Below are positions 15,498 to 57,314 of a DNA stretch of 64,000 nt, in pieces. The stretch's first letter is position 1. Every line of letters starts with the position of its first letter. Source of the stretch: a virus. Location: the IMG/VR virus record IMGVR_UViG_2920962495_000002, positions 2,873 to 66,872 of that record; one strand, given 5' to 3'. Made by a program: the position numbers and the translations under genes. The notes beneath the pieces are model-generated. The model had not been told where the DNA came from. It saw only the letters and a program-made list of their open reading frames with translations, and ran no database searches.

Positions 15498-15536
15498 GGA
15501 ACACCAAGGCGCTTAAACGCTGGCAAGTGCGATAAT
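15498..15536 (+). promoter_or_regulatory. Late promoter motif GGAACAC-N26-GATAAT
   Basis: One of 11 fixed-spacing copies; upstream of the tape-measure gene. Confidence 0.75.
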
Positions 15537-15569
15537 TGAGTGACTTAACACACATACAGGCACTCAATT

Positions 15570-18065
15570 ATGACTACCCTAAATTACGATGCTAACGGCT
15601 TTATCGTTGGCATTAATCGCATGAAGGACGGGATTGATAACGTCCATGATGATACGCAAGAGATCATTCAGATACTCAAGAGCCAAAACCAAATTGGCAA
15701 CACACGAATGCGAGAGCTTACCCGCGCTGTTAAATCCGCAAACTATCGTAGCGAATCACAAGCCAGCGCAAGCATAAGTCGCACGCGCTCAAGCTCGCTC
15801 GATAGACGCCCGCGTATACCCTCTTCAGCTAGTACCGATGGCACCAATAACCGTAATAGCAATAGATCATCTAGCGGTTCAGCTAGTCGCTCAACGATTA
15901 GCCGTGCCAGCTCAAGCGCAGCTGATCGTGGTAGCAATTCATCCGGCTCAAGTAATCGCAGTACAAGCTCAAGCAACAACTCACCCGATAATGCTCGACG
16001 TGAGCGTGATGCCAATGGGCGCTTTATATCGGATGGTAGTAATAGCAAAAGAGGTTTTGGCTTGCCTGGTGGTATGGGCGGCCTTAGTAATGATGTTAGC
16101 GGCATGGATCCGATGCTTGATAGTATTAGAGAGGCTAAAGAACTGCTATCTCCTATCGGACGCGCTGGCAAGCTTGCCGGACGCGGTGCTAAGTTCAGTT
16201 GGTCAAAGTTTAAGTCAATGAAGCGCCGAGAGCCATTGCCTAACGATGAGACGCGCCACAATCGTGAGAATGAGAAGTTATTAGATAAAATATGGAAGGC
16301 GATTAAAAAGCAAGGCAGTGGTGGTTCTGGTGGCGGCTTACTGGGTGGCTTACTGGGTGGCGGTGGTCGCAACAGACGCGGTGGTCGTGGTCGTCGCGGG
16401 CTTCTTGGTAGACTAGGCGGGTTAGGTGGCGGCTTAGTAAGAGGATTGGGTAGAAAGCTACCTTATATTGGGGCAGCGATTGGGGCAGGTTCGCTTGCTA
16501 TGGATTGGGACGGCCTCAATCACAAGGAGAAGAGCGCAGGTGTGGGCGGTGTTGCTGGTGGTGCTGGCGGCGCATTGGCAGGGGCAGCAGCAGGCGCGAC
16601 CATAGGTTCGGTTGTGCCAGTTATTGGCACGGCTATTGGTGGCATTATTGGCGGTGGTGTTGGTTACTGGCTTGGTAGCGGTGCAGGTGAAGCATTAGGC
16701 GCAGCGGCATCCCCTTATATTGAGGATTGGACGAACTCTATTACTGCTTATAACTTGCCTAAGAAAATGAGTGATACGTGGAATAATGGGGTTAAGCCGT
16801 TTTTTTCTAAGATATTAAAGACGGCTGGTGACTTTGGATCGTGGGTTAAGGACTTGCCGGCAGGTATTAAAGACTTCTTTGGGTTTGATGGTGGCGGCAA
16901 TGGCGCTCCAGCAGGAGAGGCGTTAAGGGCGGCAGACTACGCTATAAAAAATGCGGCTAATGAATCACTTGGCAAATGCGCTGAGTATGTTAATAACGCT
17001 TTTCAAGCGCAAGGATTAAAAGCTAGCGGCCACGGCGTTGATGTAGCAACAAATCTACGCAAGGGCAATGAAGGTAAGTTTGAGGACGTGGCCTATGATG
17101 AAAACTACCAACCGCAAGTTGGTGATGTTATGAGTATGCCATCAAGCAAGAAGTCTAAGCATAACTACGGTCACGCCGCGATCTACACTAAAGACGGTTG
17201 GGTTTCGGATTACAAGCAAGGCGAGAAGTACGGCAATACCGCAGCGCCTAACTCCGATTACTACGAGGATATCCAGTCAGGACGCATCAAGCCAACTATT
17301 AGCCGTATGATTAATAGCGAGGCTGTAGCAGCACCCAGAAGCTCGTCTACTATCGCTAAGAGTAACCAAGCGATGGACTTCTTTATGAGCAAAGGGTGGA
17401 CGAAAGAGCAAGCCGCTGGACTCGTTGCTAACTTACAAAAAGAAAGTCAGTTCGATCATAAGGCAAGTGGTGATAGTGGTAAAGCTTATGGCGTGGCTCA
17501 GTGGCATCCAGATAGACAAGCTAATTTTAAGAAGAAGTACGGTAAGAATATCAAACAAGCAACCTATGCCGAACAACTAGATTTTGTTGACTATGAGTTG
17601 ACTAAGGGCACAGAGCAGGCTGCTGGCAAGCGATTACGTAAGGCCACTAATGCGGCTCAAGCGGGTTCGGTGGTATCGCAGTATTATGAGCGCCCAAAAA
17701 ATGTAGAGAGTGAAAAAAGAGAACGTGCCGCGATTGCTGCTGGCATTGCCAATAGCCACTCAGTAAATACCAGTATTGCTAATAAGGCGAAGCCTAGTAG
17801 TAGCGCCACAGGCTTTAGCCTTGGTGGTATGACCAGTGCAAGCAGTCTTGCATCAACCGGTAGCTACAAACCTGCTAACTTGCCAGCCACACCCGTGCTA
17901 AAAATACCCGCCATGCCTAAGATTAAAGAACGACTAGACAGTGGTGGCAGCAATAAACCTGTTATATTGCAATCAAGTAATGATACAATTAATCAAAATT
18001 TGTCGGATAGAGGGTTAGCACATGCGGTTACAGGCGGCTTTGGTCAAGATAGGATGTGGGGTTAG
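15570..18065 (+). CDS. Tape-measure/structural lytic protein (P1 Sit-like) with CHAP-like and phage-tail-lysozyme domains
   Basis: Ser/Arg- and Gly/Ala-rich segments; GKCAEYV...YGHAAIY (Cys/His); GWTKEQAAGLVANLQKES...GVAQWHPDR...QLDFVDYEL. Confidence 0.75.
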   Translation: MTTLNYDANGFIVGINRMKDGIDNVHDDTQEIIQILKSQNQIGNTRMRELTRAVKSANYRSESQASASISRTRSSSLDRRPRIPSSASTDGTNNRNSNRSSSGSASRSTISRASSSAADRGSNSSGSSNRSTSSSNNSPDNARRERDANGRFISDGSNSKRGFGLPGGMGGLSNDVSGMDPMLDSIREAKELLSPIGRAGKLAGRGAKFSWSKFKSMKRREPLPNDETRHNRENEKLLDKIWKAIKKQGSGGSGGGLLGGLLGGGGRNRRGGRGRRGLLGRLGGLGGGLVRGLGRKLPYIGAAIGAGSLAMDWDGLNHKEKSAGVGGVAGGAGGALAGAAAGATIGSVVPVIGTAIGGIIGGGVGYWLGSGAGEALGAAASPYIEDWTNSITAYNLPKKMSDTWNNGVKPFFSKILKTAGDFGSWVKDLPAGIKDFFGFDGGGNGAPAGEALRAADYAIKNAANESLGKCAEYVNNAFQAQGLKASGHGVDVATNLRKGNEGKFEDVAYDENYQPQVGDVMSMPSSKKSKHNYGHAAIYTKDGWVSDYKQGEKYGNTAAPNSDYYEDIQSGRIKPTISRMINSEAVAAPRSSSTIAKSNQAMDFFMSKGWTKEQAAGLVANLQKESQFDHKASGDSGKAYGVAQWHPDRQANFKKKYGKNIKQATYAEQLDFVDYELTKGTEQAAGKRLRKATNAAQAGSVVSQYYERPKNVESEKRERAAIAAGIANSHSVNTSIANKAKPSSSATGFSLGGMTSASSLASTGSYKPANLPATPVLKIPAMPKIKERLDSGGSNKPVILQSSNDTINQNLSDRGLAHAVTGGFGQDRMWG

Positions 18066-18372
18066 TTTGTCATTGAGCTTATTCACGCCAGCGCTGGCAA
18101 GTGATGACTACAACTGTACGCAGTTAATGTATGAGCATGGGTTGGCTACTTCAGCGCAGCTATATTGTGGATATGAAGATTACAGTGAGGCTGTAATTAG
18201 TAAAGCCAGTCAATGTATGGCACTCGCAGAAGATCATGGGGAGTCAGATCGATTGAAAGAAACTTTAAAAGAAGGGTTGGCTGATTTTCAGGCAGAGTAT
18301 GAAAATGCCAGTAATAAAAAAGAGATATGTAGTGTGTTTGCCGATCAGTTTCCACTATTTGTAAGACCGTAA
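18022..18372 (+). CDS. Secreted four-Cys small protein
   Basis: Signal-peptide-like N-terminus ending FTPALA-SDD; four Cys in the mature part. Confidence 0.6.
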   Translation: MRLQAALVKIGCGVSLSLSLFTPALASDDYNCTQLMYEHGLATSAQLYCGYEDYSEAVISKASQCMALAEDHGESDRLKETLKEGLADFQAEYENASNKKEICSVFADQFPLFVRP

Positions 18373-18391
18373 AAATATAAGTTTATGAAGA

Positions 18392-18425
18392 AGGGCTTGC
18401 GTTTAAGGCGCAGCCCTATTTTTTT
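18392..18425 (+). terminator. Intrinsic terminator
   Basis: AGGGCT...AGCCCT stem followed by a T run. Confidence 0.6.
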
Positions 18426-18446
18426 AACTAAAATTAAGAGAGTCCA

Positions 18447-19659: not shown

Positions 19660-19699
19660 GGAACACCCCAGCCAGCACCCCAGCAAAGCCCCTTAAACT
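19660..19699 (+). promoter_or_regulatory. Late promoter motif GGAACAC-N27-TAAACT
   Basis: Fixed-spacing copy upstream of the protease gene. Confidence 0.75.
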
Positions 19700-19736
19700 A
19701 AGTATATTAACTATGCTTACTTAAGGGGCTTTTTTC

Positions 19737-24063: not shown

Positions 24064-24102
24064 GGAACACCACCCACCGTACTTGCCGGCACACGTTAAA
24101 CT
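24064..24102 (+). promoter_or_regulatory. Late promoter motif GGAACAC-N26-TAAACT
   Basis: Upstream of the tail fibre gene. Confidence 0.75.
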
Positions 24103-24138
24103 AATACTCATTACTATACTGATTATTGGATTAAAACA

Positions 24139-42406: not shown

Positions 42407-42441
42407 CCCCTAATCTTAATTAATACAGCCAAGGCTAAGTT

Positions 42442-43202: not shown

Positions 43203-43211
43203 GGGTTGGTT

Positions 43212-44543
43212 ATGGCTCAGCATTTTGGCAGTTTGGATTTAAGAAGCGGCATATCTCTAAGATCGTCGCAACATTTTGGTAGCCTAGTGCTAAAAAATGA
43301 CAATCTTTTATACCTATTTGCAGACGGGCAGCAAGGCGCATGGTACGACCCATCTGACAAGTCAACGCTATTCCAAGGCGTAGCAGGTACAGTGCCAGTC
43401 ACTAAAGATGGCGACCCTGTGGCATTGATGTTAGATAAATCAGGCAACAACAATCACGCTACTCAGACGGTAAGTGCTGCTAGACCTGTTTACAAAGACA
43501 ACCTTGCCAGACTGTCACTGGATAAAGTGGACGATGCGATTGTTATCAATCTACCAACCCGCTTGGTGGGTACGATGACGATAGCGTCAACAACAGGTAC
43601 AGCAACTTATGGTGTCGATATACCAGCTGGAAACTTTACTTTAGGCGGTAGTTATTTCTCATCAAACAATATTGTAGGTCTAATATTAAGAGAAGGGGAG
43701 TTGTCTGCTGATGATGAGAGCAAGGTAGATTCTTATTTATTGAGTAAAGGTGCTGTTAAGAGCTTTGTAGGGATTACTGATTTCGCTACTGCTTGGTATA
43801 ACAACAACTTAACATCATTTCCCTTGATTGACACAAGTAGTGGTACTAATTTCTCTTATGCTTGGCATGGAAACAACTTAACATCATTTCCCTTGATTGA
43901 CACAAGTAGTGGTACTAATTTCGCTACTGCTTGGTATAACAACAACTTAACATCATTTCCCTTGATTGACACAAGTAGTGGTACTAATTTCTCTTATGCT
44001 TGGCATGGAAACAACTTAACATCATTTCCCTTGATTGACACAAGTAGTGGTACTAATTTCGCTACTGCTTGGTATAACAACAACTTAACATCATTTCCCT
44101 TGATTGACACAAGTAGTGGCACTAATTTCTATCGTGCTTGGCATGGAAACAACTTAACATCATTTCCCTTGATTGACACAAGTAGTGGTACTAATTTCGC
44201 TACTGCTTGGTATAACAACAACTTAACATCATTTCCCTTGATTGACACAAGTAGTGGCACTAATTTCTATGGTGCTTGGTATAACAACACCTCCCTAGTG
44301 GATTTCCCAGAAAATATGTTTGACAATATAAAGGGTGGTAATTTTACTTACACCTTCACTGACACAAACCTGTCTCAATCTAGCATTGACGGTATATTAG
44401 CATCACTGGTTGCGTCAGGTATTGCGTCAGGTACACGAGCATTTGACCAGTCCGGCGGTAGTGCCCCGTCTGCTACAGGGCAAGCGGCGATTGATACATT
44501 GCGTAGTCGTGGTTGGACAGTTACCGTAACAGGAGGGTATTAG
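43212..44543 (+). CDS. Putative fibre/spike protein with 23-aa LRR-like (BspA/DUF285-like) repeats
   Basis: N-domain GAWYDPSDKSTLFQ...PVTKDGDPVALMLDKSGNNNHATQ, then 7+ repeats of FxxAWxxNNLTSFPLIDTSSGTN. Confidence 0.7.
   Translation: MAQHFGSLDLRSGISLRSSQHFGSLVLKNDNLLYLFADGQQGAWYDPSDKSTLFQGVAGTVPVTKDGDPVALMLDKSGNNNHATQTVSAARPVYKDNLARLSLDKVDDAIVINLPTRLVGTMTIASTTGTATYGVDIPAGNFTLGGSYFSSNNIVGLILREGELSADDESKVDSYLLSKGAVKSFVGITDFATAWYNNNLTSFPLIDTSSGTNFSYAWHGNNLTSFPLIDTSSGTNFATAWYNNNLTSFPLIDTSSGTNFSYAWHGNNLTSFPLIDTSSGTNFATAWYNNNLTSFPLIDTSSGTNFYRAWHGNNLTSFPLIDTSSGTNFATAWYNNNLTSFPLIDTSSGTNFYGAWYNNTSLVDFPENMFDNIKGGNFTYTFTDTNLSQSSIDGILASLVASGIASGTRAFDQSGGSAPSATGQAAIDTLRSRGWTVTVTGGY
43782..44288 (+). repeat. 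69-bp coding tandem repeat (7 full units plus a partial)
   Basis: Units start at 43782, 43851, 43920, 43989, 44058, 44127, 44196, 44265; near-identical DNA, alternating A/B types. Confidence 0.95.
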
Positions 44544-44544
44544 T

Positions 44545-44949
44545 ATGAGCCAATACACACACAGAATTACTTTAGTAGTGCCCGAGCTACTTATGCCACA
44601 AGCTAATCAACTTGCACTCATAGCAGGGGAGAGCCTTGCTGATGTTAATACATTTACACAAGCAAACTATCAAGACGCAGACGGCAATCTCTATGCTGTA
44701 TGTTCAGCAGTCATTAAACCTATTGTGTTATCACTTGCTGATGCACCGCTTGCAGACACCCCTCTAAAAACTAAAGGTGCTGATTTAGTATTGGCACAGC
44801 AAGCGATGGATAAAGTAGTCAAGTATCAAAAAGGCGTAACGGTTACGCCTGATAATATTTATATAGGGATTGATATTGACCCGTTTAAGTTTTTTGAATC
44901 AATAGGGCTAATAAGCGTTGTCATTGACGATGTGGGTGCGCCAATCTAA
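44545..44949 (+). CDS. Hypothetical protein accompanying the repeat fibre
   Basis: 134 aa immediately downstream. Confidence 0.55.
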   Translation: MSQYTHRITLVVPELLMPQANQLALIAGESLADVNTFTQANYQDADGNLYAVCSAVIKPIVLSLADAPLADTPLKTKGADLVLAQQAMDKVVKYQKGVTVTPDNIYIGIDIDPFKFFESIGLISVVIDDVGAPI

Positions 44950-45836
44950 TGAATATTCAGCTCGAAGATGGCAGTCAAATCGGCACCAATCTAATTAGCG
45001 CAATCTATCGCACTGATCTTGTGCCCGTACCTGTCACCATTGAGCTTGTCGTCAAAGCGGATGATCGATTGCATAAGCTATTATTAATTGATAAGACGCT
45101 GACCACCCCTAAAGACGTGTCGCTGACCATCGTTAAATCACAAGTTATCAATGAGCAATCTATCAAGGCTGGCAAGCGCATTGCCGCGCTGCATATCATT
45201 GCTGTCTTATCAGGATGCGAGCCACTGCTAGGCGTCACCAAAAAGGCAGTCAGCCTAGATAATACCAGCTTTAACGAGGTGTACCGCGCATTGGGCGCTA
45301 AAGTCCGCATTAAAAAAGACATCAAACTTGCCAGCTTTATTTGCCTGAAAGGTCAGATGCCAACCGTGGCCATTGCTAAAGCACTGCAAAAAGAGTCGGC
45401 GGTTATTTGTCATACTAATAACGGTTTGTCAGTCATTCGCCTAAACGAGCTAATGATAGGCGCGGCGACCTTGTTTGATAAAAGCGCCGTGCAATGGATC
45501 AACAATCCCAATGCTATCCGGCACGGCAACGTCAATTATCTGTCTATCGATGACAATGGCTCAGATATATTAGGGTCAGCACGGACTGAGCGCTCAATAG
45601 AATACTACCCACGAGCAGACAACCGCGAGCTACAGAACTTGCGGCGCATACTTATCACCAAAGCCACTATTACTCGCCAGCTCGACGAGCGCTTGGACGC
45701 AGGCAAGCTTATAACGGTTGACAACAAAACATTGGTAGCCTTAACCGCCGCGCACCGATTCGAGTCAGGAGCGTTAGGCGGTCCCGCTGTTATGGCAACA
45801 AAAGCGTGGCTTGCTGGCGTGGAGGATAGATCATGA
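44949..45836 (+). CDS. Baseplate hub (GpD/gp27-like) protein
   Basis: 295 aa directly before the spike gene. Confidence 0.55.
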   Translation: MNIQLEDGSQIGTNLISAIYRTDLVPVPVTIELVVKADDRLHKLLLIDKTLTTPKDVSLTIVKSQVINEQSIKAGKRIAALHIIAVLSGCEPLLGVTKKAVSLDNTSFNEVYRALGAKVRIKKDIKLASFICLKGQMPTVAIAKALQKESAVICHTNNGLSVIRLNELMIGAATLFDKSAVQWINNPNAIRHGNVNYLSIDDNGSDILGSARTERSIEYYPRADNRELQNLRRILITKATITRQLDERLDAGKLITVDNKTLVALTAAHRFESGALGGPAVMATKAWLAGVEDRS

Positions 45837-46486
45837 GTCTTGTATCACCATACATACACCCCGCCAAACTTATCAGCTACGACAACACCAATCGCACGGC
45901 TAAAGTTTCTATCGCAGGGCTTACGGATGGCGTAGAAGAAGGCATCACCGCCATGATTGCCTACCCGATAGGCGATGATGACATGGACACAGAGCGCGAG
46001 CTGATAGCTGGTGCTGATGTGTGGGTGTTCTTTGAGCAAGGCGACACCTCAATGCCAGTGATTGCTTTTTACCGTCGTCACGGGCAAGGGCGAGCGGTGG
46101 TGGATGTTCGCCGCATACGTCAAGAAAATATCGAGCTACTAGCACGCACCAGAATAACCTTGGACGCTAAAGACTTGGTACATATTAAAGCCAAAACCAT
46201 CACTATTGATGCAACCACCGTCAATCTTAATGCCAGTAACTTTAACGTCACCGCAGAAACGAGCGTTAAAGGCAACATCGGACAAGTGGGCAACTACTCA
46301 ATGCAAGGCAATCAGTCAATCACTGGCAGCCATACCGTCAACGGCAATAGCACCTCTTACGGCAACCAGACAATCAATGGCAGTGTGTCTGCCACAGGCG
46401 ATATCAAGGCGGGCGGCATATCGCTTAAATCTCATAAACATGGCGGCGTTGATACTGGCGGCGGCTCAACCAGCGGCCCACAATAA
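45833..46486 (+). CDS. Baseplate central spike (GpV/gp5-like)
   Basis: OB-fold region (GADVWVFFEQGD...PVI), beta-helix repeats, tip GISLKSHKHGGV with an HxH metal motif. Confidence 0.85.
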   Translation: MSLVSPYIHPAKLISYDNTNRTAKVSIAGLTDGVEEGITAMIAYPIGDDDMDTERELIAGADVWVFFEQGDTSMPVIAFYRRHGQGRAVVDVRRIRQENIELLARTRITLDAKDLVHIKAKTITIDATTVNLNASNFNVTAETSVKGNIGQVGNYSMQGNQSITGSHTVNGNSTSYGNQTINGSVSATGDIKAGGISLKSHKHGGVDTGGGSTSGPQ

Positions 46487-46521
46487 CATTTGCTAGAACA
46501 CAGCATTAATAGGCGTAAAAC

Positions 46522-48150
46522 ATGAAACTACTTAATACCATGGCAAACATGCTGATTAGCAATCGTGAGATGAAACGGTCTGCCACGCCAGCGGGCATTG
46601 GCGATGTCAATCGCCAGTATGAAGCGCTTAATCAGATGGAGCTTGGCACCTTTAACAGCCCTGAAAACGCGCCGCGAACCCGTCAAGATATCTACTCAAC
46701 GTGGGAGCTGATGCAAAAGGACCCACAAATAGCAGAGGCATTAAGCTTGCATGTTACGGCAGCACTCGGCGGGCATGAAACCACGGGTGACATGATATTT
46801 ATTACCCCGCATGAGCGCGTGCGTGGTAAAGGTCGACGAGCAAAAGAGTTGCGCGATAGGGTGGAGCGTGAGGCATTGCATATTGCGCCCATTATTAACC
46901 GTTACGCCTTCACCTTAGCGCGTCAAGCCATCGCCTATGGGGACAGTTACGCACGTATCTATACTGACAAGCGTAAGGGCGTGGTAGGACTTATGAACAA
47001 TCGCCATACCGCGCCATCGCTTATTATGCCGTTTGAGCAGGCAGGCGAGACAGTCGGCTTTCATGGGTTAGAGGAAGAGGACTACGAGCGCTCTATTGCC
47101 AAGCTTACTCCTAGACAGCTATTGCGCGTCAAGATGCAGCGCATCGAGGTGATACCGCAGATGACCATGCAGGTATGGCAAGACAGAAAAACGCTGATCT
47201 ATGATGAGCGCTGTGACAATCCCATCTTGCCAGCGGAAATCGGTGGCTCATTCCTCTATCCAGTAGAGAAGCCGTGGAAGGATGTTGTTATTAGCCTTGC
47301 AGGACTGAACAATCAGCAAATAGCCGATAGTGTCAAGCAAGCCTTTTTAACCGTCAACATGGAGGGGATGCCGCCCAGACAACAGACAAAGTATAAGAAA
47401 TCCATCACCGATATGCTGACCAACTACCGCGATCAGATACAAGAGGCGTTTAAAGGCGGTGAGGCATTACACGGCACCAAATATCATGTGTTGCCGCAAT
47501 GGGGTGATAAGCAGATATTGCAATCAGTAGGGGATTTATCACAGCGCAATATGCCACTAAACCCTGAAACGCTCATGCTCAACCTTCGCCGCGTGGCAGG
47601 TGGTCTGGGGATTGATTTATCCTTAGTCGGTTGGGCGGATATGCTGGCAGGCGGACTGGGTGATGGCGCGTCTTTTCAAACGTCCGCACAAATTATGCGT
47701 CGATCTAACCTTATTCGCACCTCGTTAATTGATGCCTTTAATCACTTAATGAGCATTCATTGGGGTATCAAGTACGGGGAATATTTTGATGCTAAAGAGT
47801 ACCCGTGGCAGTTTGACTTCTTCTCAGATGCTGGAGCCGCTACCGCGCAAGCACTAAGCAATAAGCAAAACAAAGCCAACACACTGACTATCGAGATGCA
47901 GGCAGTACAGATGATAAAGGACTTGGGACTTGGCAAAGAGGCGACACAACTCATGCTTGAAGACCGCTTGGACTACGACTTATCTTTTGCAGAGAAGGTC
48001 GCTATTGCCATTACCGCGCCACCAATGGGCGAAGAGGGCTTGCCAGCAGGGATGCCGCAACCTCCTAGTAATGCCGATATGAGCAATAATCCTGAAGACG
48101 ACGACTTGCCAGATGGCCTAGACGATATGGAGGATGACTATGAGGACTGA
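46522..48150 (+). CDS. Portal protein (P1 Prt-like)
   Basis: 542 aa; YSTWELMQKDPQIAEALSLHVTAALG, GWADMLAGGLGDG, acidic tail. Confidence 0.75.
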   Translation: MKLLNTMANMLISNREMKRSATPAGIGDVNRQYEALNQMELGTFNSPENAPRTRQDIYSTWELMQKDPQIAEALSLHVTAALGGHETTGDMIFITPHERVRGKGRRAKELRDRVEREALHIAPIINRYAFTLARQAIAYGDSYARIYTDKRKGVVGLMNNRHTAPSLIMPFEQAGETVGFHGLEEEDYERSIAKLTPRQLLRVKMQRIEVIPQMTMQVWQDRKTLIYDERCDNPILPAEIGGSFLYPVEKPWKDVVISLAGLNNQQIADSVKQAFLTVNMEGMPPRQQTKYKKSITDMLTNYRDQIQEAFKGGEALHGTKYHVLPQWGDKQILQSVGDLSQRNMPLNPETLMLNLRRVAGGLGIDLSLVGWADMLAGGLGDGASFQTSAQIMRRSNLIRTSLIDAFNHLMSIHWGIKYGEYFDAKEYPWQFDFFSDAGAATAQALSNKQNKANTLTIEMQAVQMIKDLGLGKEATQLMLEDRLDYDLSFAEKVAIAITAPPMGEEGLPAGMPQPPSNADMSNNPEDDDLPDGLDDMEDDYED

Positions 48151-48760
48151 TCTAGTGCAAGGGCTAATCGCTAGCAAAAATGATGTTGGGCGCGTAAAAG
48201 TAGGTACGGCAACCAATTCGCAGTACATGCAGTCTTTACAGTTACTCTATGGTAAATTACGGGTACATGAAGCGTTATTGCAGTGTATGTATGTGGTCAA
48301 GATTGAAGACATATTCGGCAATGGCCCTAACATTCCTTGGTTTAGAGATAAAACATTATGCTACCTAGCAACTGAGGCGGATATGTCGCTAGGCAGTGCT
48401 GAGAGTGAGTCATTCTATGCAGGCGCATATCAAGCCAGCTATTTGACGCAAAAGTCATCGGACGATATGGACATGACCTTTATTGAAACCCTTAATGCTG
48501 ATATCTCTAATTCATACCGCGCCTGTCACAAACTAGCGTTTAATGACGATGGCACGATGAATGAGTCGAAAAAGTACGCTTTTAAATTAAGCGTTGGGCT
48601 TATCAATCATAAGAAACCCAATAGCGAGCCAGTTATCAATAGATCGTGGCTCGTTGGTGCCAAAAGCGCCCGTCCTGAGATTAGTAGTACGGGGCGTAGT
48701 GAGATTGTCAAAGTGCCAGTAACCTTTCAGAAGCTCAGGCCACTTATGTTTGAGCGATGA
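48134..48760 (+). CDS. Tube-fold/baseplate-tube initiator-like protein
   Basis: 208 aa; MDMTFIETLN...VKVPVTFQ tube-like pattern. Confidence 0.45.
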   Translation: MTMRTDLVQGLIASKNDVGRVKVGTATNSQYMQSLQLLYGKLRVHEALLQCMYVVKIEDIFGNGPNIPWFRDKTLCYLATEADMSLGSAESESFYAGAYQASYLTQKSSDDMDMTFIETLNADISNSYRACHKLAFNDDGTMNESKKYAFKLSVGLINHKKPNSEPVINRSWLVGAKSARPEISSTGRSEIVKVPVTFQKLRPLMFER

Positions 48761-48775
48761 TATCTCTTAGCTAAT

Positions 48776-48804
48776 AACCCACTCTTTGAAGTGGGTTTTT
48801 CTTT
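48776..48804 (+). terminator. Intrinsic terminator
   Basis: AACCCACT-CTTTGA-AGTGGGTT-TTT. Confidence 0.75.
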
Positions 48805-48818
48805 GCCTAACATTCAGC

Positions 48819-48858
48819 GGAACACCCCCGCTGCATAGCCGCCAAACCTTGTCACAAT
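48819..48858 (+). promoter_or_regulatory. Late promoter motif GGAACAC-N27-CACAAT
   Basis: Upstream of the darA-like gene. Confidence 0.75.
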
Positions 48859-48899
48859 AAACCTATCTTATTATCCCTAACAAACATAGGCGTCCTGCA

Positions 48900-51800
48900 A
48901 TGGCATATATCACACTCAATAAAGCGCATACTCACCATAAAACAACTATCAATGGTCAGCCTACTAGCCAGTATAGCCGCTACGAAACAGGTTTAATCAC
49001 TGGCAACAAGCGAGACTTGCCAGCCATTCTAGCGGATAGTACGGGCAGTGACGGCTATAGTTTTGATAGTGCAGTCGGTAGTGCTGATGATAGCTGGCAC
49101 GTATTAAACGCCTTTGATAAACAGGGCTTGTATGTCGATAGTATTGCGGTTGGCGGCGCTATGGATGCCGATCACGCTACCGTGGTAGCGCGCACCCAGC
49201 TTGACAGCCTAGGCGCAGCTAACCTAAAAGTGATTGGTGAGGGATTGGTTCAGTTTGACAGTATCAATCAATCGAACGCTGGCACGTTTTCAGTTGACGC
49301 CATCAACAAGCTTATGGACAACCCTTCGCAGGATAAAAACTACCTACCGATCATTACCGCCTCAGAGCTTGCTTATGAAGCTGATCGCGTTACCTTTGAC
49401 AGTGTGGAGTGGGGCGAAGGAGCAGAGCTATTAAGCCATGACGGGCGTGATAGCACACTCATGCTAGACATGACTCGTGCCGATACTCGCAGCGACTTAG
49501 TAAACGAATTTGAGCTTGCAGACGTACTCGACTTGCTGGGCGCTGAACCTGAGCAGAGCTTTGATGCCTTGATGGACACCAAAAACCGTTTAGGGCTATT
49601 GAAAGATCGCTTATATAACGCGATGAGCCGTGCCGGTAACGATACGGTATCAGTTACTAATGTCACTGAAACCAAGCCATTTAAGCGCCAGGGCGTGACT
49701 AATATTGCCTTTGTGTTTGATCTATCAGACGGTCAAAAATTGTCTATCTGGTTCCACAATCCAGACAGTACGCCATCCAAGTTAATGCCAAGCGATATCA
49801 TGATTAGCTGGAAATGGATGTTAAACAAGCGTGATGTGACCGCCGCATTATCACCAAAACAAGGTGATAACGTCCAGTTGCCTGCGCTGGCTAGTCGAAT
49901 CATGCGCGTAGCTGCCAAAAACTCTATGCCATTTAAGCGTACACAAGCCAAGCGCTTAAAGCTAGATAATGAGCTAGCAGAAGCAAAAATGACGATTGAA
50001 AATAAGACTGCCACTATCGAGCAGTTGGATCAAGATATTGCCAGCCTAAATAGCCAGATTGATGCGGCTATGAAAGCGCCTAAAGTTGAGCTTGTGGTTG
50101 AGCCGGTCGTCGAACCTGTTATAGAAACGTCGGTAGTTGACGAAACTGTAGCAGAGCCAGCTGGCCAAGACAGCACTACGCAAGATGACACCGATGTCGC
50201 AGCACCTATCACTATCACAGGTAAAGAGATTGACGTAAGTGAGGATGTTGATTTTAAAACAGCAAAAAACAATGCGATGGCATATTTTGACAACAATTTA
50301 AAAGATAAGGTTGTTTTCTGTCCTGCCATTGACAGTGATGTTTTGTTGAGACGGCGCGGTGGTAAACATATTGCTAAAGCAAATCATACGTTTCGTGAAA
50401 AACTAAAGCTGGTGGCCGCTATTCCTGAAATGATTAAACAGGGCAAATATGGGCATTACACTGCTTTGAACAAAGAAAAAGGCTCTAATATCGAAGGGTA
50501 TTATGTATTGAATGTTGCAGTGGTAGTAGGTGGCAATCTAAAAGCAGCAAGAGTCGTACTGGAGAAGAATAACGAAGGCGAGGTTTTATATGACATAGGT
50601 ATAGACAAAAAAGAAGCCTTAGCAGCTCTAGGGGATACTATCACCAAAAATACATTTGATGGGTTCACCGGATCTAGCCAATACCAAGACTTCTTAGATG
50701 AATCTTACCAAGCGGATGACAGTGATGTCAACCAGTTTGACAATGTGCTTGAAACAGCGATCCCTGATAACTATTCAGGGGTTGCTTCAAGCACACTTAA
50801 TATTAAAGCACCAAATAGTGAGGATGTCAACCAAGATCAAACTATGTTCGATAAGGCAGACCTTGCAACAGTCGATGGGGTGCTGAATATGTTTATTTTA
50901 AACGAGACATCTATCGAAGATACCGCAAATCACAACACTGATAACGAATTAGCTGATACTAATCCTAATGAAAATACTAGTACCTATGTTGCTGATTCGT
51001 TTAGCGAGCTGAGCTATATATCAGTTACTAAAACCGATGATAACCAGTACGAGGCATCAATAAAATCAATAAATAACGATAGCAAATTATCCGGCAGCTT
51101 AACCGAGATTAAAGGCTTTATCTCTAACTACTTAGAAGGCTTAGGCGCGGATATGTCAGTTTTGTCCCTAACTAATGGCGCGGATGTTTTGAAAACCGAC
51201 ACCGATCCAGATCACACCCCAACCAACCCCAACAACAAAAAAATCACCAAAGGCAAATCCAATAAGGCCAAAACCCCTAAAGGCACCAAAATTGAAAGCG
51301 TCTTTGCTTTAGTTGATGCTAAATTCTTGATCGCCTCGCATACCGCGAACGGCAGCAAAAACCCTAAATACCCACAAGAGCTACAGCCGCGTGACCGTGC
51401 GCGTGAATCCTCTATTGCTTGGGTACAAAAAACCTCAAGAGAACTTGATCCTGAGAGCTTAGGTCGTACTGGCCGTGTTGATACCGGCGCGCCTATCGTG
51501 GGTGATGACCTAGTGGTAGAAAGCGGCAACGGTCGCACTATTGCGATCAAGATGGCCTACGCCAATGGCGATGCTAGCGAGTACAGAGAATGGCTTGCTG
51601 AGAACGCTGATATGTTCGGTATGACCGCTAAGCAAGTAGAGAGCTATAAGCAGCCTATCCTTGTGCGTATGCGTACCACGCAAGTGAACCGTAGTGAGTT
51701 TGCAGTAGAAGCGAACCAAGACGACAAACTAAGCTTTACCGCCTCAGAACGCGCCAAATCAGATGCTAAGCGTGTTAATGCTGGCATGTTAGAGCTATTC

Positions 51801-53165
51801 GATCCTAGCGAGTCAGGCGACATCTTAGCCGCCAGTAACCGCCCATTCGTAAAATCGTTTCTAGCCAGCCTAGGCGCGACAGAAGCGGCGCAATATACCG
51901 ACAGTAACGGCAATCCAACTCAAGCGCTAGTCGCTCGCATTAAAGGCGCATTGTTCAGTAAAGCCTATGACGATGACCGCTTGCTTGAGATGATGGCAGA
52001 TCAAACAAAGCCTGAGCTACAAAACACCCTAAACGCCCTAACAATGGCCGCGCCTAAGTTTGTAGCAGCACAAGCGGTCAACCGTAGTGACGCGCAGGAC
52101 TTGGCTGAAAAAGTGGTTGATAGTGTCGAGCAGTCGCTAAGCGACGAGGTTAAAAACGCCATTGTTGATGCCACCAACATGATTATGAACGCCAAGCTTA
52201 GCAATCAAGATATTAAAGAATACGTGCTGCAACAAGGGTTATTTGAGCAAGTGGACGATGCCACCGCTGAACTTGCGGTATTCCTAGCCGCTAATGCTCG
52301 CAGTGCTAAGAAGATGACCGATTATTTCAATGCAATGGCAAGCTATATCGAGCAGGACAGCGTAAGCCGTCAAACACTAGATATGTTCGGTGAGCCTGAG
52401 CCGCTATCACTCGCTGATGTTATCGCACACGCCAACAACCAAGTTAATGATAATACCGACACTATAGGGACGCTTGATATGTTTAATGAGACGGTAGTAG
52501 AAGAAGCGGTAGTGACTGACAACCAAGCTACCACAAGCGACAAGAATTACTCATCCAGCAACCCTTATGCTGCTTACGCTAATGATGACGAAGATGCTAT
52601 GAATAACGCCGACCAATGGGAGGCCAGAGAGCCGCTAACAGAAAACCGTTTGGATCAGCTTAACAAAATGGCAGAATCGCTTGGTTTTAGCACCTTTATC
52701 GAATCAAGACATGCAGGCTTAGGGGTATTCCAAGCAGCCAAAGAAGTATCTAATCGCAAGGTCGAGATTGACGGTAAATTCAAAAACAATGACGGCCAGT
52801 CATCAAAAGAAGCGCCTAGAGACTTCACTATCGAAAAATCTGAAAACGGAAACATTGTTGATTACCAGTACACCAACGACTTATCAGATTATATTAAAAA
52901 GGCGAACGACTGGCTAAATCAAGCCAGCCCACTTGACGACTTCAACACAGCCAACCTAGCCGCCAAAGTCGACGGCATAGTCAATGAGATAAACTCAAGC
53001 GACTTTGACCCAGAGATTTTTGATGTTGATGCGCTAAGCGCTATTGCTGAAGAAGCTGAGGGCAATAGCGAGCTTACCGCAAAACTTGAGGCTGCAAGTG
53101 AGGTCTATCAAAACAAGTTGATGACTATCGCCATGCAAGCGATGTCTGACATGGCAGGCAACTAA
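48900..53165 (+). CDS. darA: DarA-like large polyvalent virion protein (DarA-N, LPD3-like and DdrB-like ParB domains)
   Basis: KPFKRQGVTNIAFVFDLSDGQKLSIWFH (DarA-N), ITITGKEI...RRGGKH...EVLYD (LPD3-like), PQELQPRDR...GAPIVGDDLVVESGNGR (DdrB/ParB-like). Confidence 0.75.
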   Translation: MAYITLNKAHTHHKTTINGQPTSQYSRYETGLITGNKRDLPAILADSTGSDGYSFDSAVGSADDSWHVLNAFDKQGLYVDSIAVGGAMDADHATVVARTQLDSLGAANLKVIGEGLVQFDSINQSNAGTFSVDAINKLMDNPSQDKNYLPIITASELAYEADRVTFDSVEWGEGAELLSHDGRDSTLMLDMTRADTRSDLVNEFELADVLDLLGAEPEQSFDALMDTKNRLGLLKDRLYNAMSRAGNDTVSVTNVTETKPFKRQGVTNIAFVFDLSDGQKLSIWFHNPDSTPSKLMPSDIMISWKWMLNKRDVTAALSPKQGDNVQLPALASRIMRVAAKNSMPFKRTQAKRLKLDNELAEAKMTIENKTATIEQLDQDIASLNSQIDAAMKAPKVELVVEPVVEPVIETSVVDETVAEPAGQDSTTQDDTDVAAPITITGKEIDVSEDVDFKTAKNNAMAYFDNNLKDKVVFCPAIDSDVLLRRRGGKHIAKANHTFREKLKLVAAIPEMIKQGKYGHYTALNKEKGSNIEGYYVLNVAVVVGGNLKAARVVLEKNNEGEVLYDIGIDKKEALAALGDTITKNTFDGFTGSSQYQDFLDESYQADDSDVNQFDNVLETAIPDNYSGVASSTLNIKAPNSEDVNQDQTMFDKADLATVDGVLNMFILNETSIEDTANHNTDNELADTNPNENTSTYVADSFSELSYISVTKTDDNQYEASIKSINNDSKLSGSLTEIKGFISNYLEGLGADMSVLSLTNGADVLKTDTDPDHTPTNPNNKKITKGKSNKAKTPKGTKIESVFALVDAKFLIASHTANGSKNPKYPQELQPRDRARESSIAWVQKTSRELDPESLGRTGRVDTGAPIVGDDLVVESGNGRTIAIKMAYANGDASEYREWLAENADMFGMTAKQVESYKQPILVRMRTTQVNRSEFAVEANQDDKLSFTASERAKSDAKRVNAGMLELFDPSESGDILAASNRPFVKSFLASLGATEAAQYTDSNGNPTQALVARIKGALFSKAYDDDRLLEMMADQTKPELQNTLNALTMAAPKFVAAQAVNRSDAQDLAEKVVDSVEQSLSDEVKNAIVDATNMIMNAKLSNQDIKEYVLQQGLFEQVDDATAELAVFLAANARSAKKMTDYFNAMASYIEQDSVSRQTLDMFGEPEPLSLADVIAHANNQVNDNTDTIGTLDMFNETVVEEAVVTDNQATTSDKNYSSSNPYAAYANDDEDAMNNADQWEAREPLTENRLDQLNKMAESLGFSTFIESRHAGLGVFQAAKEVSNRKVEIDGKFKNNDGQSSKEAPRDFTIEKSENGNIVDYQYTNDLSDYIKKANDWLNQASPLDDFNTANLAAKVDGIVNEINSSDFDPEIFDVDALSAIAEEAEGNSELTAKLEAASEVYQNKLMTIAMQAMSDMAGN

Positions 53166-54007
53166 TGCCAAACGCGCCAGCCACCAACAAAAACAAGACT
53201 ACCAATGGCAATACCATTGGTAGCACCTGGGGCGAGAAGGGTTTAAATAAAAACCTTGTCGTCAAAATACGGCCCGTGATCGAAGGGAATATTGAGGGCG
53301 GGCAAGGGGCACAGACTTATGAGGTTGATACCAACCAGCCTACGGTTGAGTCTATCTTTGAGGATGCTGAATTCACCATCGAGTCGCAGTACAGCACCCC
53401 TTTTGAGTCCTCAAACCCAGAGGGTCGACTACCTAACTTAATGGGTATGATTCAGTCAGGGCAGGCCGCTGCTGCTGGCTACAGTTTGTTTGCTGCTGGT
53501 GGTGGCGTAGTCGCTGACGCGGCTGATGCGGCTGCTAGCTTCATCGGCGCCAAAGGTATTGTTGAAAAAGGCCAAGCTGAACTAGAGGGACTGCTGGGTA
53601 AATCCAACTTTACCAAGCTCAATAGCCGCCAAATTTTCACCTCGTCAAACTCAGTACGCATCACTGGTAGCCTTGTCTTTCAAGCATGGGCTGATGCCGC
53701 AACCGAGGTTGAGGCAGCGGTGAGTCAGTTGCAGCGCTGGGCGTCCGCTAAGAGCTTATCAAACACATCGCTGATTGTCGGTGCGCTTGATGAGGGATTA
53801 TCAGCCATGTTCCCGTCAGAGATACCGCCAATGGTTCAACTGCAATACGGCGGCAAAACCTATAAGCCACTGGTGATTGAGAGCGTATCAGCACCTATTA
53901 CTGCGCCAATGACCAAGGACGGCAACCGTATAGCTGTCAAAGTGCAAGTCACCTTCTTATCCCTCACCGCATGGGACCAACAAAATATTATAGATATGGG
54001 TCGTTAA
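53165..54007 (+). CDS. Baseplate/tail-tube-junction protein (putative)
   Basis: PPMVQLQYGGKTYKPLVIESVSAP...VKVQVTF pattern. Confidence 0.5.
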   Translation: MPNAPATNKNKTTNGNTIGSTWGEKGLNKNLVVKIRPVIEGNIEGGQGAQTYEVDTNQPTVESIFEDAEFTIESQYSTPFESSNPEGRLPNLMGMIQSGQAAAAGYSLFAAGGGVVADAADAAASFIGAKGIVEKGQAELEGLLGKSNFTKLNSRQIFTSSNSVRITGSLVFQAWADAATEVEAAVSQLQRWASAKSLSNTSLIVGALDEGLSAMFPSEIPPMVQLQYGGKTYKPLVIESVSAPITAPMTKDGNRIAVKVQVTFLSLTAWDQQNIIDMGR

Positions 54008-54022
54008 CCCCAAAGGATAAAC

Positions 54023-54763
54023 ATGGAAACTACTTTAGACGTACAGCTTTTAGAGACCAATGTATTGCTGCCCGACCTTCAGATAGGGCAAGCAATGGAT
54101 ATTGCCAAGATACCCGTGGCATTCAATGAAAAACGATTAAGCGCCATGATCTCGCACTTAACGGGCAATCCTAGCTTGGCTGGCAAGTTAACCGCACAAG
54201 AGCGTTATTTTGTCCTACTTAATCACCAAGCGATATCGCAAAGCCAGCATATCGGGGACAGTGATATTGATGGTTACGCCCTGCCTACTATTCAGTCAGA
54301 TGTGCCAAAGTGCCACCAAGTGGGTGATATGTATGTTAATCACTTGCTAGGCGCTCATGTCGTCGTACTTGAGGGTCTTTGTGAGAATGTCTACGACTGG
54401 ATTGTCGGACAAATGGCCTGCCAGCTTAGTGGTGATATCTCATCCGTGATTGGCGGCGACAGTAGCGACGATCTCAAGTGGGACGTGATTGATGCGGGCA
54501 TGACTGATAACGAGATTAACGAGGCGATACAAAGCCGTATCAAGATTATCGATAGATTGGATGCTAACGGCAACTTTAATATATTGCATGATGCCTATAG
54601 CGTAGGGGTTGATGCACTATCTCACTTCGTAGTGCTGGGCTGTGAAAACAAAGGTTTAACCGTTATTAGTCAAGGAGGTGATGGCAGCAATGAGCCGTCA
54701 CGATTTCTCACCCTTGATAGCTTACAAGGGATCGCCAGAGTTATTGCAGAGTGCGTTGCTTGA
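54023..54763 (+). CDS. Tail/baseplate assembly protein (putative)
   Basis: 246 aa in the late operon. Confidence 0.45.
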   Translation: METTLDVQLLETNVLLPDLQIGQAMDIAKIPVAFNEKRLSAMISHLTGNPSLAGKLTAQERYFVLLNHQAISQSQHIGDSDIDGYALPTIQSDVPKCHQVGDMYVNHLLGAHVVVLEGLCENVYDWIVGQMACQLSGDISSVIGGDSSDDLKWDVIDAGMTDNEINEAIQSRIKIIDRLDANGNFNILHDAYSVGVDALSHFVVLGCENKGLTVISQGGDGSNEPSRFLTLDSLQGIARVIAECVA

Positions 54764-54962
54764 TGATGCGTTTGTGATGGTGGAACACGGCAATATGAGC
54801 TTGCCAGAAGCGCTTAAAATAGGACTATCTTTTTTAACAATGTACAAAACATCGTCAAGTTTTGATTTAGTGTCTAAGCGCCTAGAAAGCGAGCATCTAC
54901 ATAAAATTGCTGTTATTAGTCGTCTTGATGCCATCATTAAAACCAATCAGATACGCAGATAA
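54690..54962 (+). CDS. Small hypothetical protein overlapping the previous gene
   Basis: AGGAGG upstream; start at 54681 or 54690. Confidence 0.5.
   Translation: MSRHDFSPLIAYKGSPELLQSALLDDAFVMVEHGNMSLPEALKIGLSFLTMYKTSSSFDLVSKRLESEHLHKIAVISRLDAIIKTNQIRR
54782..54820 (+). promoter_or_regulatory. Late promoter motif GGAACAC-N26-TAAAAT inside a CDS (lysis cassette promoter)
   Basis: Same motif and spacing as the ten intergenic copies; about 200 nt upstream of the holin-like genes. Confidence 0.65.
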
Positions 54963-55018
54963 CGCAATCAGATCACGACAGTGATTATATTTAATCATCA
55001 ATTTAATTGGGATAGACA

Positions 55019-56528: not shown

Positions 56529-56551
56529 AATCAACTAAGAAAGGATTAATC

Positions 56552-57214
56552 ATGGCAGACATGAAACGATTTAACGCACTAAAAAAAGTAAATGCCAAGC
56601 CAATGAGCCGTCAAGAGTATAACGACTTGCGAGGCTGGCGTTTACCGGCAGATGAAGATGGTAGCGATAAGGGGTATTTGATTGAAGATATCAATAGTTC
56701 GCCTAATACTTTGGAGTTTGACGGTTATGTATCGTGGATGCCCAAAGAAATGTTTGATGACCAGTTTTATGAATGTACTGCAGGACAAACAGGCGACTTA
56801 CCAGTTAAATGCACCGCACCTTCTGATCCCGAACACGAATTAACCGAAGATGAAATCGCTACGCTGGCAAGTGGCGGCTCTTTATGTGATTGCTGTGAGT
56901 TTGTGGAAGGTGGAAGCGAACACCCAATCAAAGAAGGTGATCTTGTTGACTTTGGCACAGCCCTACACCTGATGGAAGTGGGCGAGCGTGTGCAGCGTGA
57001 AGGCTGGAACGGCAAGGGTATGTTTGTGTATATCGTGCCAGCCGCAAGCTATCCAGCACAGCGTAACACCAAGGGCGTGTTAGTGGGCGACTATCCTGAT
57101 GACATGGTGCCATACGGTGCGTATATCGCCCTTAAAACCGCAAGCGGCGAAGTTGTACCGTGGACTATCAGCCAGTCGGACGCACTTACTACGGACTGGA
57201 TGCTGGCTGTCTAG
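56552..57214 (+). CDS. DUF2829/Tad2-like protein with an extra N-terminal domain
   Basis: FGTALHLMEVGERVQREGWNGKGMF...VPWTISQSDALTTDW; N-domain AKPMSRQEYNDLRGW...YVSWMPKEMF. Confidence 0.8.
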   Translation: MADMKRFNALKKVNAKPMSRQEYNDLRGWRLPADEDGSDKGYLIEDINSSPNTLEFDGYVSWMPKEMFDDQFYECTAGQTGDLPVKCTAPSDPEHELTEDEIATLASGGSLCDCCEFVEGGSEHPIKEGDLVDFGTALHLMEVGERVQREGWNGKGMFVYIVPAASYPAQRNTKGVLVGDYPDDMVPYGAYIALKTASGEVVPWTISQSDALTTDWMLAV

Positions 57215-57243
57215 TACAGTAAGTAATTGCCTTGCCTCTTACC

Positions 57244-57272
57244 AAGCCCTATCAAAAAGATAGGGCTTTTTT
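57244..57272 (+). terminator. Intrinsic terminator
   Basis: AAGCCCTATC-AAAAA-GATAGGGCTT-TTTT. Confidence 0.85.
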
Positions 57273-57274
57273 GT

Positions 57275-57314
57275 GGAACACACTAAAAGCTGGCAAGTCG
57301 TTATACCTCATAAT
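57275..57314 (+). promoter_or_regulatory. Late promoter motif GGAACAC-N27-CATAAT
   Basis: Upstream of the darB-like gene. Confidence 0.75.

Follow-up and report, generated by a model that had tools for sequence, protein, structure and literature searches.

Eleven probable activator-dependent late promoters sharing an asymmetric GGAAC box in a temperate Psychrobacter phage

What turns on the late genes of the temperate Psychrobacter phage whose DNA we analysed? This phage joins a lambda-like early region with P1-like virion genes. A preliminary description of the 64-kb stretch of DNA studied here (the window) had proposed a late regulon built on the heptamer GGAACAC, and a motif search of both strands returned exactly the eleven plus-strand positions that it gave (15498, 19660, 24064, 30131, 34286, 35466, 38225, 41707, 48819, 54782 and 57275), with no copy on the minus strand. 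Shuffled versions of the window contained a mean of 4.8 copies on both strands and a maximum of 9, and none of 100 shuffles reached at least 11. The whole genome (3.7 Mb) contains 131 copies on both strands, which corresponds to approximately 0.7 expected in 42 kb of one strand.

Each copy is followed by the −10-like hexamer, and at the spacing of 26 or 27 nt, that had been assigned to it. All 11 hexamers are of the sigma70 type, carrying A as the second base and T as the sixth. Hexamers with these two bases and at least four of six matches to TATAAT are found, at either spacing, for only 4% of positions overall and 7% of those in intergenic DNA, so finding one at the right spacing in 11 of 11 cases is far beyond chance. 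As had been claimed, there is no −35 consensus: a consensus scan called none of the eleven sites a canonical −35/−10 promoter. Box variants with one mismatch followed by a −10 hexamer yielded no convincing extra promoter in the window.

A logo built from 37 sites in four phages showed an invariant box, C at box positions 8–10, A at positions 12–14, invariant A2 and T6 in the hexamer, and T(−1)A(+1)T(+2) located 7 nt after it. The upstream element, (T)GGAACAC followed by C-rich bases and an A-run, extends from about −46 to −32, with its A-rich part at about −35 to −32; the spacer between this element and the −10 is unconserved, and the −10 takes the form (T/C)A(A/T)A(A/C)T. The box is asymmetric, and the logo contains no conserved dyad. 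Past most hexamers, the A at 7 nt is flanked mostly by T on both sides and is our predicted start. The leader counted from this base is often exactly 27 nt long, and such leaders fold at 0 to −1.8 kcal/mol and are predicted to be unstructured. With the hexamer at −12 to −7, the box would lie at about −46/−45 to −40/−39, provided that transcription starts at the conserved A. If the predicted start is right, this position fits class II activation, in which the activator site adjoins or overlaps the −35 position (centre about −41 to −43). The eleven sites are most likely activator-dependent late promoters of the class II type.

Many ECF sigma promoters have a −35 core similar to GGAAC, a likeness that would suit a different reading, namely that the box serves an ECF-type or phage-encoded alternative sigma factor as its −35 element. 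This reading is very improbable, as GGAAC lies 28–29 nt from the hexamer rather than the 16–17 nt of the ECF type, no bases are conserved where a CGT-type ECF −10 would fall, and the hexamer is TAnAAT-type with the sigma70 signature A2/T6. In addition, we detected no sigma-family domain among the conserved early proteins, and the host genome outside the prophage was not enriched in the cassette of box and hexamer. Both the ECF-sigma and the sigma54 readings were rejected on the basis of the spacing and because no bases between box and hexamer are conserved.

The predicted promoters, all on the plus strand, head blocks for tail-lysozyme, packaging, fibre, head, sheath, Hdf/baseplate, tube, internal-protein, lysis and DarB-like functions. 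The first (15498–15543; box 15498–15504, −10 GATAAT 15531–15536, predicted +1 A 15543) precedes a gene for a CHAP/tail-lysozyme protein (ATG 15570), and the second (19660–19706; TAAACT 19694–19699, predicted +1 A 19706) precedes the operon at 19737, the last gene of which encodes a PacB-like large terminase. A tail-fibre operon (ATG 24139) follows the third (24064–24109; TAAACT 24097–24102), and the fourth (30131–30177; TACTAT 30165–30170, predicted +1 A 30177) heads the gene at 30238 (phrog_1014). The fifth (34286–34332; TATACT 34320–34325) heads 34359–34742, which encodes a sheath-N-domain-like protein, and the sixth (35466–35512; TATACT 35500–35505, predicted +1 A 35512) heads the tail sheath gene, whose start codon we corrected to ATG 35539. 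The seventh (38225–38270; TACAAT 38258–38263, predicted +1 A 38270) serves an Hdf-like and baseplate operon (ATG 38302), the eighth (41707–41753; CAAAAT 41741–41746, predicted +1 A 41753) the tail tube operon (ATG 41780), and the ninth (48819–48865; CACAAT 48853–48858, predicted +1 A 48865) the gene of a 1421-aa protein (ATG 48900) and a PmgG-like gene. The eleventh (57275–57321; CATAAT 57309–57314) heads a DarB-like gene with a corrected start codon at ATG 57348.

The tenth promoter (54782–54827; TAAAAT 54815–54820, predicted +1 A 54827) is the one that had been placed inside a coding sequence ahead of the lysis genes, and its box indeed lies within codons 2–4 of a conserved small ORF that starts at ATG 54777, in frame with ORF 54678–54962. 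A holin-like gene with four transmembrane segments (55019) lies 192 nt beyond this promoter, and the endolysin gene is at 55800. This promoter is kept in the related prophage G323 and, with the lineage variant GGAACAT, in G150. Four copies also directly follow terminator-like hairpins, in line with the number reported. A terminator scan found those upstream of the fourth (30088–30109), seventh (38189–38202) and ninth (48776–48797) promoters, and a terminator-like hairpin with a T-run upstream of the eleventh (57245–57267) was recognized by reading the sequence.

Bare repetition of the motif is all that would speak for a non-transcriptional role, such as a packaging, replication or recombination signal, or for a chance or compositional repeat. 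We give such explanations almost no weight: the distance to the −10 is fixed, the strand bias is strict, the sites are intergenic (the lysis copy apart) and lie 60–75 nt before operon starts, and orthologous positions are kept across genera.

Several of the promoters are overlaid by predicted hairpins, with z-scores of −3 to −7 at 15498, 19660, 34286 and 35466. At the first promoter, an 11-bp inverted repeat (15532–15571) spans the −10 and the ATG (z = −3.1); at the second, a terminator-like hairpin with a T-run (19686–19731) contains the −10 (z = −7.1), as do a hairpin with a 13-bp stem at the fifth (34317–34350; z = −6.9) and a hairpin at the sixth (35497–35530; z = −5.8). At the tail tube promoter, a hairpin (41748–41774) begins at the predicted start site. 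At five to six promoters, such a hairpin covers the −10 and the start site and contains the Shine–Dalgarno sequence; the three strongest are followed by a T-run or T-rich tail, and a significant hairpin is absent from 5 of the 11. At the sheath promoter, pairing of the Shine–Dalgarno arm is kept by differing 5′ arms among phages. Such hairpins can form only on RNA arriving from upstream, that is, on read-through transcripts. We infer that they may terminate read-through RNA or leave it untranslatable, and that transcripts begun at the promoter itself would escape them.

The resemblance of several hairpins to intrinsic terminators, with T-runs right after the hexamer, and the location of the candidate regulator gene in the place that Q occupies in lambdoid phages could also be accommodated by lambda-Q-like antitermination, in which the hexamer would be a sigma-dependent pause, the hairpins terminators and the box the loading site of an antiterminator. 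This is highly unlikely, given that no unit has a promoter-like −35/−10 pair upstream of the hexamer, that the hairpin shifts between −8 and +9 with respect to the hexamer whereas the box–hexamer distance is fixed, and that there are eleven units rather than one, 5 of them without a significant hairpin. Moreover, the candidate regulator, P0001, matched no Q family in Pfam or PHROGs.

Predicted promoters of this design are common to related Psychrobacter and Acinetobacter phages. A motif scan of related prophages, proposed earlier as a check, showed that G323, G183, G327 and G253 carry the cassette in front of orthologous genes and that its spacers have diverged. In a count covering 13 phages, 131 boxes lie on the late-gene strand with an ORF after them, compared with 4 on the other strand, and the distance from GGAAC to the hexamer is 28–29. 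One of the 13, the isolated Acinetobacter phage vB_AbaM_ABMM1, carries 11 boxes. GGAAC is invariant across genera, and the next two bases depend on the lineage. Megablast of 12 kb from the late region against phage and plasmid collections gave no match, and a literature search that included the ABMM1 paper found no description of a GGAACAC or GGAAC phage late promoter class. Together, the −10 hexamers, the lack of a −35, the fixed box, the predicted A start, the operon-head locations and the conservation at orthologous positions support the late regulon that had been proposed.

Which protein reads the box? Only two early genes, P0001 and P0002, are conserved in the Psychrobacter relatives. P0001 (13925–14647, plus strand; 240 aa) has an XRE/HTH_3 domain at residues ~20–80 followed by two long helices. 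Its match to Pfam HTH_3 scores 27 bits (cut-off 23), and its only Pfam matches above noise are of this type (HTH_3, HTH_31 and HTH_19). In Foldseek searches, its AlphaFold model matched ImmR, C.BclI, C.AhdI and lambda cI N-domains, with TM scores by target of 0.73–0.87 for the DNA-binding domains of ImmR, C.BclI and BldD; the matches include 1rio, the complex of the cI N-terminal domain with sigma region 4 and DNA. By profile and predicted fold, P0001 thus classes as an XRE/HTH_3 transcription factor. A search of 1.8 billion representatives found only about 70 clusters of P0001-type proteins (50% identity).

P0001 homologues are present in 26 of 401 genomes of the host family, 20 of which also have a sheath homologue, on the same strand and 25–57 kb downstream. 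Among the nine Psychrobacter genomes richest in one-strand box plus −10 matches, seven have P0001; in two motif-rich genomes, G420 and G408, this query found none. G289 is an uninformative remnant that has a P0001 homologue but lacks both late genes and boxes, and the distant homologue locus L098 has no GGAAC box within the 1.6 kb downstream that was examined. In relatives with tabulated boxes, the helix core NR(I/M)SE(I/M)ENG is kept, as is GGAAC. Box position 6 is A where the recognition helix of P0001 reads R-x-N-R, and is T or C, or mixed in one lineage, with (H/Q)-K-N-R. This covariation tracks phylogeny and is not clean, as G238 combines a QKNR helix with a mixed position 6. XRE proteins usually bind palindromes as dimers, and the asymmetry of the box is a point against P0001. 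The probable reader of the box is a helix-turn-helix protein of the phage that has no relationship to P1 Lpa.

The neighbouring gene, P0002 (14640–15497, plus strand), begins with a GTG that overlaps the P0001 stop codon, and the two are translationally coupled. Its product begins with a highly conserved three-helix N-domain, continues with a basic, disordered linker and long helices, ends in an acidic tail, and may be a small terminase or a co-factor. It had no Pfam, NCBIfam or PDB match (the latter by profile search) and no significant Foldseek hit in BFVD; its look-alikes in the Atlas are TerS clusters (0.92, with 156 shared features, below the guide value of 170; a lead only). The distance from P0002 to the large terminase gene is 6.6 kb. 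We consider it unlikely that P0002, or only a P0001–P0002 complex, reads the box instead of P0001 alone. Such a heteromer would suit an asymmetric box, and all relatives examined, ABMM1 (gp69) and two distant loci among them, have P0002 together with P0001. Because the two genes are always found together and the N-domain of P0002 is itself helical and conserved, co-occurrence cannot separate them as reader. However, the N-terminal DNA-binding domain, linker, oligomerization helices and acidic tail of P0002 resemble those of a small terminase, the order of regulator and then TerS mirrors P1 lpa–pacA, and P0001 is better conserved (59–71% identity compared with 32–44%).

We think it probable that the eleven sites are the late promoters of this phage, at which a box-bound phage activator, with P0001 as the best candidate, recruits sigma70 polymerase. 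Host sigma70 RNA polymerase alone would presumably be unable to use them because they lack a −35. A phage protein made from the end of the rightward early operon would bind the box beside the −35 position and recruit or stabilize polymerase in class II fashion. Like lambda cI at PRM, P0001 may exert its effect on sigma region 4 from about −43, and P0002 possibly joins it in activation. The late timing of this switch is likewise predicted.

Late-gene control is known in detail for few model phages, and here a stereotyped regulon of 11 promoters per genome recurs across genera. A broader reading, which we put forward only tentatively, is that P0001 represents an undescribed family of late activators (an XRE HTH with a long helical hairpin) in P1-like temperate phages, with an asymmetric GGAAC box near −43 as the only upstream element and promoters set inside terminator or Shine–Dalgarno-masking hairpins. 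This reading spans the host family, the genus names seen being Psychrobacter and Acinetobacter. If it is true, each late operon would be insulated from upstream transcription and obey the activator alone, and one protein and one box would form a compact, portable switch in a range of hosts, A. baumannii among them. If the placing of promoters inside terminators is real, it would be a compact form of operon insulation. The regulon makes testable predictions about starts, essential bases, spacing and one candidate gene, and the isolated phage vB_AbaM_ABMM1 with its A. baumannii host offers a usable test system. It would also aid the annotation of prophages and phage-plasmids in Psychrobacter, Acinetobacter and their relatives, and could supply an orthogonal set of inducible promoters for these bacteria.

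At T4 middle promoters (MotA box at −30, with AsiA) and P2/P4 late promoters (Ogr/Delta site at −55), phage factors take the place of −35 recognition. These systems likewise control many promoters of one temporal class, but their site positions, sequences and protein families are unlike those here; among the conserved early genes we saw none resembling that of AsiA or of the zinc-finger protein Ogr. For lambda cI at PRM, the likeness lies in the fold class of the DNA-binding domain and in the predicted box position: this XRE-type HTH activates from about −42 through sigma70 region 4. However, cI is chiefly a repressor and occupies its 17-bp pseudo-palindrome as a dimer, whereas P0001 has a different C-terminal part, two long helices, and would serve an asymmetric site at 11 promoters. 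The Mor- and C-dependent middle and late promoters of Mu have a recognizable −10, no −35 and an activator site at about −43 by sigma region 4 (PMC2582627). The promoters described here are similar in having a −10 without a −35 and a predicted activator site near −43, but Mor and C are dimers of another protein family on dyad-symmetric sites; here there is no dyad, and P0001 is HTH_3-type.

P1 has 11 late promoters with a 9-bp inverted repeat bound by Lpa (PMC10695390), and its annotation places this '−22 region' 4–9 nt upstream of the −10. Its Lpa system, which acts with host SspA, resembles the present regulon in having many promoters, a sigma70 −10, no −35 and a phage activator (here predicted). 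The virion, Dar and Hdf genes of our phage are also P1-like, and just as lpa lies directly before pacA, the activator candidate gene lies before a terminase-small-subunit-like gene. No homology was detected between P0001 and Lpa (BLASTP E = 81; hhalign probability 0.2%) or between P0002 and PacA, and Lpa as query had no match in the window's own genome at E ≤ 1. The logo contains no 9-bp inverted repeat near −22, its sole conserved upstream element being the GGAACAC box. As the preliminary description had argued, this box differs from the Lpa operator: it is asymmetric and lies 26–27 nt from the −10, about 20 bp further upstream. Despite P1-like virion genes, the box position and probably the activator family differ from those of P1, Mu, P2, T4 and lambda, which points to non-orthologous replacement of the late switch.

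The eleven copies of GGAACAC (the box) that the preliminary description had claimed were found in the window at exactly those positions (15498, 19660, 24064, 30131, 34286, 35466, 38225, 41707, 48819, 54782 and 57275), every time on the + strand. Dinucleotide-preserving shuffles of the window (n = 100, both strands counted) averaged 4.8 copies, without a single shuffle reaching 11. The host genome is a stronger control than the shuffles: its 3.7 Mb carry 131 copies on both strands, a rate that predicts approximately 0.7 for a single strand of the 42-kb span. The hexamers named as -10 elements were confirmed 26 or 27 nt after the box at all 11 sites. Hexamers that match TATAAT at four or more positions and have A second and T last occur, at either spacing, after 4% of window positions and 7% of intergenic positions. 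A hexamer after 11 of 11 boxes cannot be chance. As also described, there is no -35 element, as a scan for canonical -35/-10 pairs detected none of the eleven sites, and one-mismatch variants of the box in the window yielded no convincing additional site. Separately, we observed that canonical sigma70 promoter-like sites are depleted in 35001-55000, with 20 present versus 32.9 ± 6.4 expected from shuffles.

A logo built from 37 sites in four phages resolved the anatomy of these predicted promoters. GGAACAC is invariant and frequently preceded by T; C predominates at positions 8-10 and A at positions 12-14, for a consensus of GGAACACCCCTAAA, after which approximately 19 bases show no conservation before a -10 with the consensus (T/C)A(A/T)A(A/C)T, in which A2 and T6 are invariant. 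An A, mostly with T on either side, lies 7 nt past the hexamer, and this A is present at eight of the eleven window sites. Sigma70 start sites usually lie at this distance and have this composition. Relative to the predicted start, with the hexamer set at -12 to -7, the box would span -46/-45 to -40/-39 and the A-run approximately -35 to -32. At nine sites the start codon comes 30-41 nt after the hexamer, and five sites have a predicted leader of exactly 27 nt.

The window DNA is an integrated prophage, with its integrase gene just outside the window (C220:67752-68999) and Psychrobacter as the host genus given by database sources. Its left 15 kb are lambda-like, with a minus-strand CI-type repressor followed by a rightward early operon encoding Ant-like, replication O/P-like, methyltransferase, RusA-like and Bro genes. 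From 15.5 kb on, every gene points rightward and the content is P1-like: a CHAP/tail-lysozyme protein, a PacB-like large terminase, fibres, sheath, tube, baseplate and portal, together with PmgG-like, Hdf-like and DarB-like proteins and a lysis cassette. A domain of approximately 90 amino acids at the N terminus is common to the ORFs at 33086-34279 and 34359-34742; it weakly matches the N terminus of sheath profiles, a part that the sheath gene itself lacks. Within 33086-36915, the promoters at 34286 and 35466 have almost identical -10, hairpin and leader segments, and this promoter unit looks duplicated.

Scanning related prophages recovered the cassette, as the preliminary description had proposed to check. 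Sheath homologues were present in 24 of 401 sampled host-family genomes. Four Psychrobacter relatives with 59-87% sheath identity carry 7-11 copies of GGAACAC per prophage, nearly every one followed by a -10 at 26 or 27 nt and almost every one on the late-gene strand before orthologues of the same genes; the spacer sequences are not alike among relatives. More distant relatives retain GGAAC and the spacing with the following two bases altered, to GGAACA(T/A/C) in one lineage (G150, G209 and G229) and to GGAAC(T/C)N in others, including Acinetobacter-type phages. Pooling 13 phages, we counted the boxes that have both a -10 and an ORF after them: the late strand holds 131 and the opposite strand 4. 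The isolated temperate Acinetobacter baumannii phage vB_AbaM_ABMM1 (ABMM1) has 11 such units, and its published description does not mention promoters.

One site does lie inside a coding sequence, as claimed: 54782 occupies codons 2-4 of a small ORF (54777-54962) whose product starts MVEHGN. The site is kept in the relative G323, and in G150 it appears as GGAACAT, the form of that lineage; the small ORF and this late promoter are conserved jointly in both. Such conservation, including in a lineage-specific form, argues that the site is functional rather than a by-product of coding, and the stretch 54777-54962 would thus double as coding sequence and predicted promoter.

Several boxes are accompanied by inverted repeats, which are very stable at 15498, 19660, 34286 and 35466 (z = -3 to -7 versus shuffles) and moderate at 41707 and 30131. 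The 5' arm includes or directly follows the -10, and the 3' arm holds the Shine-Dalgarno sequence; at 19660, 34286 and 35466, a T-run or T-rich tail lies between the 3' arm and the ATG. A terminator scan scored one of the hairpins as terminator-like. At the tail sheath promoter (35466), a single Shine-Dalgarno arm is paired with 5' arms at differing places in different relatives. The 5' arm or the loop holds the predicted start, so a transcript initiated there would lack the hairpin; such a transcript folds at 0 to -1.8 kcal/mol. The hairpin would instead form on RNA coming from upstream. Four sites (30131, 38225, 48819 and 57275) lie just after a separate terminator, as previously noted, and at these sites hairpins are weak or absent. 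We infer from these predicted folds that the hairpins may act as insulators that stop or silence read-through.

As for what reads the box, the only early genes common to the window and its Psychrobacter relatives are P0001 (13925-14647) and its neighbour P0002 (14640-15497), whose GTG start overlaps the stop codon of P0001. Of 401 family genomes, 26 contain a P0001 homologue, and 20 of these a sheath homologue as well; where the genome is complete, the sheath gene follows P0001 on the same strand, 25-57 kb downstream. The pair is found in the same gene order in two distant loci, and ABMM1 carries it as gp68 and gp69, directly after RusA. The P0001 family is small: among 1.84 billion representatives, 72 clusters match at E <= 1e-10. 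P0001 scores above the cut-off for the Pfam HTH_3 domain, and in its model two long helices come after an XRE fold that resembles ImmR, restriction-modification C proteins and lambda cI. In relatives with tabulated boxes, the recognition-helix core NR(I/M)SE(I/M)ENG is retained, as is GGAAC; R-x-N-R ahead of this core goes with A at box position 6, and (H/Q)-K-N-R with T or C (mixed in one lineage). This covariation is suggestive of P0001 being the reader, with phylogeny as a confounder.

As an independent check, we scanned 126 Psychrobacter genomes for the box plus -10. P0001 was present in seven of the nine genomes with the top one-strand counts, and the two motif-rich genomes without it are fragmented assemblies. 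Many Psychrobacter genomes also carry several copies of an approximately 40-nt repeat that starts GGAACACCTTACGCTTATTCAC and ends CACACT, often at contig ends (for example, on contigs C121 and C414 of genome G000). This sequence, probably the terminus of an IS or similar element, matches the box pattern by accident and so inflates genome-wide background counts. A solitary P0001 homologue with 62% identity (G289:C1:2071985-2072659; loci L049 and L089) stands without P0002, and the 68 kb after it hold no late genes and no boxes; the locus looks like a prophage remnant. We also observed an orphan extended box, GGAACAC followed by CCCCTAAA and GATAAT 26 nt after the 7-mer, at L096:3679-3717 on the 7.4-kb, plasmid-like contig C60 of G000. 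It comes after a T-run, has only a very short ORF downstream and shares the contig with a MobA/MobL relaxase, a PAAR protein and a RelB/YafQ toxin-antitoxin pair. This box could be chance, or a mobile element responding to the phage late activator.

P0002 combines a conserved N-domain of three helices with a disordered basic linker, long helices and an acidic tail. Small-terminase clusters are the closest to it by language model, a lead only. The annotated terminal repeats of ABMM1 adjoin the large terminase gene rather than lying inside gp69, and so lend no support, in that phage, to a proposed pac site of direct repeats within P0002 (14863-14982). Co-occurrence, synteny and helix-box covariation point to P0001 as the candidate activator, and the candidate readers of the box are P0001 alone or P0001 plus P0002. 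Between a small ORF and the P0001 start (13798-13924) there is a hairpin (AAACGTCC ... GGACGTTT) together with a possible -35/-10 pair, so P0001 may be controlled separately where the early operon ends.

Activator-dependent late promoters without a -35 are a well-known kind, exemplified by P1 Lpa, Mu Mor/C, P2 Ogr and T4 MotA. In P1, lpa lies directly upstream of pacA (PMC10695390; P1 annotation), a gene order that P0001-P0002 mirrors, but the proteins are not alike: we found no significant similarity between P0001 and Lpa or between P0002 and PacA. The difference from P1 in the preliminary description held, as these promoters have no inverted repeat at -22 and a search of the window's own genome found no Lpa homologue; they fall outside the P1 family by its defining features. 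The dyad-symmetric site of Mu and its Mor/C protein family are both missing here. Our literature search found no published description of the GGAAC box. Mechanistically, an XRE-type protein that would act from approximately -43 has its nearest parallel in lambda cI at PRM.
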